Below are positions 1 through 3,000 of a stretch of DNA of 4,161 bases, in pieces (the stretch's first letter is position 1; each line of letters opens with the position of its first letter). The position numbers are program-made. This stretch comes from a virus (taxonomy: Duplodnaviria; Heunggongvirae; Uroviricota; Caudoviricetes), in the IMG/VR virus record IMGVR_UViG_2700989507_000017, positions 1 to 4,161 of that record; one strand, written 5' to 3'.

Positions 1-3000
1 CCTTCAGCATGTACAGCGCAGCCAGGTCATCATTTGTGTCCTTCTGCACGCGCTGTATCTGCTGAATGGTGGCGCTCTGGTCTTCCAGCGTTTTACTGAC
101 CGTCTGTGTGATTTCATTGCGGGTTTCTGTGATGGTGGTCTGCATTTCCGCCATCTCGTCCTTCAGCTGACTGTTGTCAATCTCTGCCCACAGCGCCTCT
201 GCCAGATGCGTTTTTCCTATCTTTTCCCGGAAAAGTTCCAGATAGCCCGCAGCATCATTGCTCGCCCGTCCACTGGCTTCCACAAAAGCAGATTTACCCA
301 CCAGGTTGACGCTGCGCACATAAAACCAGAAATCCTTTCCGGGCTTAATGTGCGGACCGGAGACACTCCACTGACTGCCGGTCCCCAGATAACGGGCAGA
401 GGTTTCCACCTGTGCGGCGTCTGCAATTTTTGCCTCCGAAAACCAGAACTCAAACTGCACCGTCGGGTCATAAATGGTCAGTTTCGGGACTGCCGTTATC
501 TGAAAATACCCCGGCGTCAGTTCAACACCGGCAGGCGCTGCCGGTGCGTTAATCCGGAAGGTGGTGGTGGCCGGTTCGCCCTGCTGGCCATAACTGTTAA
601 TTGCCCTGACTGTCAGGGTGTATTCCCCGAGCGGCAGACCACTGAAACGATGCTCTGTATCCGCAGTGATGGCGGTGGTCACCAGACGGCTGTCTTCTCC
701 GCTTCCGCTGGTCAGGCGCAGACTGAAGCGCACACCCTTCACCACCCGCGGCGTGTCCCATTTCGCCTGTGCCAGATACTGACCGTCAGCCGCGCTCACC
801 TCCACCGTCAGGTGCTGCACTGCCGGTGGAATAACGCTGTTCAGGGTGCCTGACTGCGGCTCAAAGCTGGCCCCGTTATCCACGATGGCTTCTTTTTCCG
901 GTACGTGCTGCACCGCCGTGATGGCAAAGGTGCCGTCCGTGTTTTCCCGGATGGAGACACAGCGGAACAGGCGACGACGCAGTGACGGCAGGGAGAGTCC
1001 CCATACACCGTATGTCTCCACACCATCAGGCAGGGTGCTGACCTGTATCCGGTCCGGCGCGGGGTGTGCAGTGATGGCCACGCTCACCGGCTTACCGCTG
1101 CCGTTAATCAGGTTCACCGTGGCGGCACCTGTCTCCGGCAGGGTCACCTCACGGTCCAGTGTCAGGGTGCGGCTGGCGGCATCGATGGACAGGATACGTC
1201 CGCCGGTCATGGTCCCGGCATAGTCGTTATCACAGATTTCAATAATGTCACCGGGTGTGTGACGCAGCCCCTGTGACCCGAGCGTGAAATCCACCGTCTG
1301 CGTTTCCAGCAGTCCGGTCTTTATCACCCACAGCCCGGCACGGTGGGCCTGACCGCGACTGGTGCAACCGAACGCATCCATCTTCAGCAGGTTGCGCCCG
1401 TAGCGCAGTATGGCTTCCGGGTCTTCCACCAGTTCCGTGGAGGTCTGCCAGCCGTTCTGCGGGTCGGTGTAATTCACCTCCACCGCCGTGTGGCGGTCCT
1501 TCAGGGCGCTGAAGCTGTAGCGAAACCCCACGCCGTTATCATCCACCACCACATCGCAGTTGGTGTACGGCCACACCACATCCGACGGGCGGTCCTGAAC
1601 GAACGTCAGCGTCTGGCCGTTCCATACCGGCATACAGCGCATCGCCGAGCAGAAATCACTGAGAACGTCCCACGCCTTACGCTGTTGTGACAGGTACGCA
1701 TTAAAGGTCATCCGCGGCTCTGTCCCTCCGAAGCCGTCCGGGACCGTCTGGTCGCAGTACTGCCCGATGGCATACAGCGCCCATTTGTCCACGTCCGCGG
1801 CCCCCAGGCGTTTCCCCATCCCGTAGCGCGGGTGAGTCAGCATGTCCCACAGACACCAGGCCGGATTGTTGCTGTATGCCGGTTTCAGACTGCCGTCCCA
1901 GATACCGCTGTACGTGCGTTTTTCCGGGTCATAGTTTGACGGCACCTGGATGATGCGACCGCGGATATGGTAGTTCACCGTCATCTGCTGGCCGCCGAAC
2001 TGCTCCGCATCCACCTGCAGCCCCACAATGGCCGTGTTCGGGTAGCACTGTTTCACATCGATGATTTCGGTGTATGACGACCACAGCGTTCTGTTCTGCA
2101 GCTGGTCCGTGGTGCTGTCCGCCGTCTCCCGGACCATCCGGATGTTAAAGGGACGGGGAGGCAGATTCTCCAGAATCACCGACGCCAGGTACTGTGAGGT
2201 GGTCTTGCCGTTAATGGTGACATCCTTTTCCGTCACCCAGTTACCGTTACGCTGTAACTGAATCAGCAGGCGGACGGATGTCGGGTTTCGGTCACCCTTT
2301 GACGTGGTCTGCACCAGTGACTGCACCCCGAAGGTGACCCGCAGGCGGTCAATGTTCGCGGATGTAATGGTGCGCGTCACCGGCTTTGCCTTCGTCACTT
2401 CCACGCCCAGTGCGGTTTCCGCCCCGGAGGACTCAAAGCCTTCCGGCGGTGTCTGCTCCTGCTCCCCGGCGCGCCAGACCACGGTCACACCATGTATCAC
2501 AGGATTACCGTCCGTGTCCGTCAGCGGGGTTTTGTTCACCAGGATACTCTGCAACCCCTTCACCGGACCTTCAATCGGCCCTTCACCAATGGCGTCAATC
2601 ACGCTCATCATCTGCGTGGACTTAAGATTGTCCTTTGCCTCTACCGGCGTGTGCGCCTTGCCGCCACCTTTACCCACTCTGTCCCCCTCTCCTGTCTGAT
2701 GTCTGAATCTGTTTATGCCCCAAAAACGACAGGCACCCCGGAGGGTGCCTGTGTCATGACGGAATAAAATTTCTGAATTTCTTCACATTTTCTGTACGCC
2801 CCCGTGGCAGATATCATTCCCGGGCGTTACAGTTTTTTCGGGCCAATAAAAACAAAACTCCCTGTGGTTAATCTTCATTTTCTGTTCCCGCAGCCTCCAT
2901 ACACTGCGGGATTTTTTTATTCTTTTTACCTCTGCCGCCCGATAACCACCACCTTCCCGTCACCGCCTTCATCACGGGTGCTGATGTCCTGGGAGATTCG

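Follow-up and report, generated by a model that had tools for sequence, protein, structure and literature searches.

A predicted Rho-independent terminator upstream of the tail-tip gene J

In the DNA analysed here, a stretch of 4,161 nucleotides (nt) of the virus record IMGVR_UViG_2700989507_000017 (hereafter, the window), the genes of a phage tail operon lie on the minus strand, and that strand encodes an RNA hairpin followed by a U tract between the tail genes I and J. The hairpin belongs to a Shiga toxin (Stx)-type lambdoid prophage and stands just upstream of J, the gene for the tail tip. Considering its structure, strand, conservation, genomic context, and replacement by unrelated terminators in related prophages, we think it probable that the hairpin is a genuine Rho-independent terminator of the tail-operon strand, which would insulate J in the lysogen and be read through by Q-modified RNA polymerase.

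Read 5' to 3' on the minus strand, the element is ACAGGCACCC-UCCG-GGGUGCCUGU-CGUUUUUGG. The stem-loop (2729..2752) consists of a perfect 10-bp stem, ACAGGCACCC pairing with GGGUGCCUGU, of which 7 pairs are G-C, capped by a UNCG-type tetraloop; the stem is thus G+C rich, short looped, and within the length of about 5-14 bp expected of intrinsic terminators. The 3' tail (2720..2728) contains five U at 2726..2722 that begin 2 nt past the stem, and other variants of the hairpin carry UGUUUUUGU or UGUUUUCUG at this place. From the last U (2722) to the J start codon, the distance is 44 nt. A preliminary description of this DNA, made from the sequence alone, had placed a strong intrinsic terminator on the transcribed strand at 2720..2752, 43 bp upstream of J, and the sequence, terminator scan, fold, and shuffles all agree with that placement. 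In the scan, the hairpin was the strongest terminator-like site of the window (10 pairs, 7 G-C, loop of 4), and a terminator-like site with a Watson-Crick stem of at least 10 bp appeared in just 1 of 500 dinucleotide-preserving shuffles of the whole window, both strands included. Its predicted RNA fold (-25.6 kcal/mol, z = -4.05) was equalled by none of 200 shuffles. The sequence 3' of the same palindrome on the plus strand has no U tract; therefore, the hairpin would serve as a one-way signal for the tail-operon strand. When the whole window was compared with all Rfam families at an E-value of ≤1, no match fell on the hairpin.

Conservation and replacement of the hairpin

The hairpin is retained in hundreds of prophages of Shiga toxin-producing (STEC) and enteropathogenic Escherichia coli (EPEC). 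We gathered I-J spacers from IMG/VR by the N terminus of J and by a conserved spacer motif, and supplemented them with spacers of strain Sakai, EPEC E2348/69, and several phages; locus counts from this set (about 134 hairpin places and the 190 upstream-block places mentioned below) include duplicates, because the two scans overlapped in some IMG/VR contigs. Across the ~134 loci, the hairpin exists in 15 distinct versions, and 98.7% of their stem cells are paired. At pair 8, six versions have C-G, six have U-A, and two have U.G, while pairs 1 and 9 show changes from A-U to G.U and from C-G to U.G. On the opposite strand, these wobble variants are C.A or A.C mismatches, so that the unpaired cells number 2 for the sense strand and 8 for the opposite strand, a pattern indicative of selection on the sense-strand RNA. 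Loop sequences differ (UCCG, UCAG, CACG, and CGGUGA), and the four tail U at T35-T38 of the alignment do not change among the 15 versions.

Non-homologous replacement appears more telling than covariation. Prophages of the PPompW type carry a different, bidirectional terminator in the same slot, AAACCCCGGUAUC-UGCU-GAUACCGGGGUUU, and two unrelated hairpins, the window type and the PPompW type, have thus come to occupy it. Among the 190 fetched places that have the conserved block upstream of pasB, a small RNA (sRNA) gene of the opposite strand described below, 185 have a sense-strand terminator with a stem of at least 7 bp no more than 150 nt away; three of the other five have the PPompW-type (type B) hairpin, which the tail rule missed, one is interrupted by an insertion sequence (IS), and one has a deletion. 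Of 5426 complete E. coli genomes, 786 have the window-type spacer (median among these, 4 copies), and many Stx1- and Stx2-converting phages carry it as well.

Several points weigh against this reading. The U tract has just five U and is offset by 2 nt from the perfect stem, so that termination may be of limited efficiency. Pairing is maintained among the versions, but covariation supports it modestly, as the versions are closely related and 12 of 500 shuffles reach the observed score. A recombinant version, with arms of different origin and a C.A mismatch in the stem, occurs in four loci. Spacers of another kind, ~850 nt long (type C), have no sense terminator before J, which indicates that the hairpin is common but not indispensable. 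Lastly, the benefit that a lysogen would draw from a silent J is one that we infer.

An antisense sRNA cassette fills the I-J spacer

The I-J spacer (2678..2925) is 248 nt long, compared with 60 nt in lambda and 51 nt in N15, and has a G+C content of 46% (41.6% when the hairpin is omitted), whereas I and J have 59-61%. It thus has the extra DNA and the deviating G+C content that mark morons, which are defined as inserted DNA having both a promoter and a terminator of its own and being expressed while the prophage is repressed (Cumby et al. 2012, PMC3594210). We describe the spacer as a low-GC moron-like cassette whose cargo, pasB, runs against the late operon; the terminator of this antisense cargo is present at 2886..2918, and its promoter is putative. 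The preliminary description had recognized the hairpin in this spacer and missed the main content, namely, PasB (= EcOnc22/23/24) with its terminator adjoining I.

The PasB homolog, antisense to the tail operon, occupies 2840..2920 on the plus strand, with an approximate 5' end. Plus-strand positions 2845..2918 are identical to PasB at 62 of 70 positions, terminator included. Within it lie a conserved single-stranded stretch, GGUUAAUCUUCAU (2866..2878), and the terminator, UCCCGCAG-N10-CUGCGGGA followed by seven U (2886..2918), which ends 8 nt from the I stop codon of the other strand. The sole Rfam match of the window, to anti-hemB, fell on the plus-strand terminator and was dismissed as chance level (18.5 bits versus a gathering score of 49.5).

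PasB of EPEC E2348/69 is an Hfq-dependent sRNA of 83 nt (NC_011601, 1466343..1466261, minus strand) with 37 interactions in RNA interaction by ligation and sequencing (RIL-seq) (Pearl Mizrahi 2021), and we find it between I (+) and J (+) of prophage PP6, with its 3' end 5 nt from the I stop codon. EcOnc22, EcOnc23, and EcOnc24 are Hfq-bound sRNAs of the Sakai prophages Sp15, Sp14, and Sp11, respectively, which are ~85 nt long and destabilised without Hfq (Tree et al. 2014, PMC4104026). Their coordinates land in the three Sakai I-J spacers after a shift of +128 from NC_002695.1 to NC_002695.2, which was verified on HnrS/EcOnc10 and holds for about 2.17-2.90 Mb; left uncorrected, the coordinates would put the EcOnc22-24 peaks on the hairpin rather than on PasB. 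In Sp15, the hairpin occupies 2902741..2902764 of NC_002695.2, with its 3' tail at about 2902732..2902740. Because the northern probe GGGAGAGAACGATGAAGATTAAC reads as the tail-sense strand, the EcOnc22-24 RNA is antisense to the tail operon. Since PasB, EcOnc22, and the plus strand of the window align, PasB and EcOnc22/23/24 are, as judged by sequence comparison, the same antisense sRNA gene of the I-J spacer. Its RNA has been detected by northern blot, by Hfq cross-linking followed by cDNA analysis (Hfq-CRAC), and by RIL-seq in the published strains; expression in lysogens is thus published for PasB homologs, not for the copy in the window. The PasB and EcOnc22-24 names are not cross-referenced in the tables of either paper nor in the 2026 Pas preprint, and in RefSeq, the cassette is unannotated on the O157:H7 chromosome that has an identical spacer. 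Joining the EPEC name with those from enterohemorrhagic E. coli (EHEC) allows two data sets on one sRNA to be combined. The same gene was also seen at locus L091 (662..744, minus strand) and at locus L006 (about 1338..1428, plus strand). In the type C spacers (locus L050 and 11 similar loci), the 3' part of pasB is kept, and an antisense open reading frame (ORF) that has a lipoprotein-like signal sequence (MKCKIIAAIAMLTAASCG...) and a terminator of its own replaces the pasB promoter region and the sense terminator.

Other assignments of the spacer content were rejected. The hairpin is not part of PasB/EcOnc22-24: it is on the opposite strand, PasB ends at its own terminator (2886..2918), and the hairpin stands on the far side of the pasB promoter region, facing away from pasB. 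Anti-sRNAs of the AgvB/AsxR type map near PR' and the lysis genes, and HnrS (EcOnc10-12), a 66-nt multicopy prophage sRNA, adjoins the lysis genes of Sp12 and not the I-J junction.

Conservation within the spacer peaks at 2769..2790 (AAATGTGAAGAAATTCAGAAAT on the minus strand), a block that resembles a CRP box (TGTGA-N6-TCAGA) and is centred ~60 bp upstream of the PasB 5' end as placed from the EPEC mapping. It is the sole match in the window to TGTGA-N6-TCACA with at most one mismatch; 0.18 matches were expected, and 33 of 200 shuffles had at least one. Together with TACAGT at 2828..2833, this box would form the putative pasB promoter, in which the promoter scan showed no consensus promoter. 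According to the EPEC publication, the PasB level is higher in lysogeny broth than in Dulbecco's modified Eagle's medium. From the sequence, we infer only that 2769..2790 is a putative pasB promoter element, possibly a class-I CRP site.

Proposed role of the hairpin and alternative explanations

If the hairpin is a terminator, it would mark the J-proximal edge of the moron-like insert that carries pasB. In the lysogen, the late operon would be silent and pasB expressed, and any unmodified polymerase moving in the sense direction would be halted at the hairpin before reaching J. Such stray polymerase could come from the following sources: (i) leakage through K and I, or (ii) a divergent start in the AT-rich pasB promoter region. 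In lytic growth, Q-modified polymerase starting at PR' would transcribe the operon and read through the hairpin as it does through the other terminators beyond tR'. Judging from the conserved lambdoid gene order K-I-J, the hairpin presumably lies downstream of PR'-qut-tR' in the same transcription unit, the Q/PR' region falling outside the window. The dependence of J on Q-modified polymerase, as it had been proposed earlier, fits a late operon; nothing in it is specific to J, because the entire lambdoid late operon depends on Q read-through of tR', as is established (restated in PMC7547250).

A different possibility is that Q-modified polymerase reads through and that the hairpin acts after transcription, by blocking 3'-to-5' exonucleases or marking a processing site, and thereby gives the upstream tail-gene segment and the J segment of the mRNA different stabilities. 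Every lambda late gap of at least 40 nt has a hairpin and a U tract despite a terminator-resistant polymerase, and the stable loops of the UNCG type, UCCG in the window hairpin and in N15 and UGCG in lambda, fit selection for RNA stability. A stability element would not need a U tract, yet the tract is kept in all 15 variants, and we regard this role as fairly unlikely on its own; it is compatible with termination and does not exclude it. Slightly further from our expectation is a function confined to DNA, or none at all: the palindrome could be a protein-binding or recombination site, or a neutral relic of the pasB cassette. In favour of this, the 10-bp inverted repeat is perfect and has the CRP-like box ~30 bp away, and mosaic recombination joints are frequent around it. 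However, the G.U and U.G variants keep pairing only in the sense-strand RNA, the loop is free to vary while the stem and U tract stay, and unrelated terminators substitute at the same place, all of which make this explanation very unlikely.

The hairpin could also be the terminator or 3' module of a sense-strand sRNA, starting in the spacer or cut from the 3' untranslated region (UTR) of I, that would be fully complementary to PasB and would form with it a divergent or overlapping sRNA pair. sRNA dyads occur elsewhere in EHEC prophages, and conservation is high over the 40 nt upstream of the hairpin, which have A-R-N and U-rich stretches; moreover, the CRAC study dropped sense-strand Hfq sites ≤100 nt from coding sequences, so such an RNA could have been filtered out. 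The published read counts speak otherwise. Over the three Sakai I-J regions, Hfq-CRAC reads from uninduced cells favour the PasB strand by ~100:1 (21,000-33,000 versus 100-390; Tree et al. Table S1B, PMC4104026), the abundant strand being assigned as that of PasB by the northern probe. In EPEC, the complete per-RNA RIL-seq table, likewise from uninduced cells, contains no RNA of the I 3' UTR, the I-J intergenic region, or the J 5' UTR (E2348C_1436/1437), and the RNA sequencing base means are 5 for I and 15 for J versus 480-1080 for PasB. The promoter scan found no sigma-70-like promoter on the sense strand, where just weak, non-conserved -10-like hexamers were visible by eye, and Hfq-dependent sRNAs usually have a longer U tail. 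The pasB promoter explains the conserved upstream block equally well, and on that reading of 2769..2790 the conservation calls for no sense-strand sRNA. Two sense-strand ORFs of the spacer, 2878..2783 (31 codons) and 2817..2713 (34 codons), were rejected as genes since they are not conserved, the ATG being lost in locus L002 and the stops differing in locus L003. Given the CRAC strand ratio, the RIL-seq table, the missing promoter, and the non-conserved ORFs, an abundant Hfq-bound sense sRNA in uninduced cells is unlikely, although a rare or induction-specific one may exist, and a sense sRNA of any kind seems to us an unlikely origin of the hairpin. The earlier suggestion, in which a transcript from the spacer or from I ends at the hairpin, is thus disfavoured for an Hfq-bound sRNA and may hold otherwise.

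The predicted terminator and the antisense sRNA might also work as a pair that blocks tail-tip synthesis, although we consider this quite improbable. A tail-operon transcript that reaches the hairpin would carry a perfect complement of PasB. In the lysogen, PasB could therefore bind leaky late mRNA, or that of a superinfecting phage, at the I-J junction, an effect that would add to termination at the hairpin and shut off J. If this were true, the prophage would possess an RNA-based block on tail-tip synthesis of related phages, and the flood of late mRNA after induction would sponge PasB and release its host targets.

Taken as a terminator, the hairpin alone matters little, being one more internal terminator of a late operon. 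Its practical value is that of an annotation landmark. The spacer forms a compact regulatory cassette of PasB/EcOnc22-24, its promoter region, and an outward-facing terminator.

Gene content of the window

The minus strand of the window is the tail-tip end of a lambdoid late operon. Gene K (3896..3504) encodes a C40/NlpC-P60 peptidase and has lost its 5' part to an IS3-family element; gene I (2926..3606), a tail assembly protein with the Pfam domain Lambda_tail_I, ends at 2926; and gene J (1..2677), the tail tip or host specificity protein, begins with a GTG at 2677, stays open up to the window edge, where it runs off, and contains the Pfam domains GpJ FNIII-A and Phage-tail_3. RefSeq annotates K, I, and J in the same way on an O157:H7 chromosome with a 100% identical spacer, and the GTG at 2677 is the gpJ start given there.

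The IS3-family element starts at 3899 (3899..4161 of the window) and truncates K, and its orfA, of the HTH_Tnp_1 family, begins at 3953; uninterrupted relatives align with the window only as far as 3898. Its left end, TGAACCGCCCCGGG, presumably resembles that of IS629. Since K is cut by this element, the prophage copy in the window is probably tail defective. Between the hairpin and the J ribosome-binding site (2690..2705, minus strand), the heptamer CAGACAT is present in two copies here and four in locus L072, and its copy number differs among prophages. The 31-codon ORF mentioned above (2878..2783, minus strand; MKINHREF...) overlaps pasB on the sense strand and stops just before the hairpin; it is probably no gene.

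Comparison with known phage elements

As a moron-like insert, the spacer shares with the morons of lambdoid phages (Juhala et al. 2000; PMC3594210) its extra DNA between late genes, lower G+C content, own terminator(s), and, as far as the PasB homologs show, expression in the repressed prophage. The I-J junction is a recognised moron site: in HK97 it holds gp22, a forward moron, and gp23, a "reverse moron" that has a terminator of its own, and phi80 has the moron gene morF. Unlike the known morons, this insert carries as its cargo a non-coding sRNA encoded by the reverse strand, and the hairpin faces the opposite way to the cargo and is thus not the cargo's own terminator.

The hairpin is also comparable to tR', the source of StxS (Sy et al. 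2020, PMC7547250), which is an intrinsic terminator in the late unit at which unmodified polymerase halts in lysogens and which Q overrides. However, tR' adjoins a constitutive promoter and gives an abundant Hfq-bound sRNA, whereas the window hairpin has no evident sense promoter, and its Hfq-bound sense RNA is ~1% of the antisense signal.

The closest counterparts stand at the same junction in other phages. Lambda had been taken as a terminator-free comparison for the window, which does not hold, as its 60-nt I-J spacer contains AAACCGCC-UGCG-GGCGGUUUUGUCAUUU, a hairpin and U tract directly before J. A hairpin and U-rich tract are in fact present in every gap of at least 40 nt in the lambda late operon (D-E, E-FI, I-J, J-lom, and lom-stf; 6080..6134, 7161..7201, 15445..15504, 18904..18964, and 19586..19649 of lambda, our locus L090), none of which is annotated in the RefSeq record. 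The HK97 record has a "putative terminator" at 15107-15129, 12 nt before J, and in the N15 record, genes 20 (I) and 21 (J) are separated by a "putative rho-indep. transcription terminator" (15307-15330), likewise 12 nt before J. Such terminators were therefore already known at this junction, and the window hairpin is unremarkable among them. As in HK97 and N15, its place is between I and J, with the late-operon strand encoding it, and it consists of a G+C-rich, short-loop hairpin followed by a U run; with N15, it also has in common the UCCG loop and a CACC...GGUG core, beyond which we found no sequence homology to the hairpins of lambda, HK97, or N15. The HK97 and N15 hairpins are 7 bp long and 12 nt from J, whereas that of the window is 10 bp long and 44 nt away, and N15 and lambda, unlike the window, have no sRNA cassette beside the hairpin. 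By this comparison, the window hairpin is best described as a positional and functional analogue of the lambda, HK97, and N15 elements, not a copy of them.

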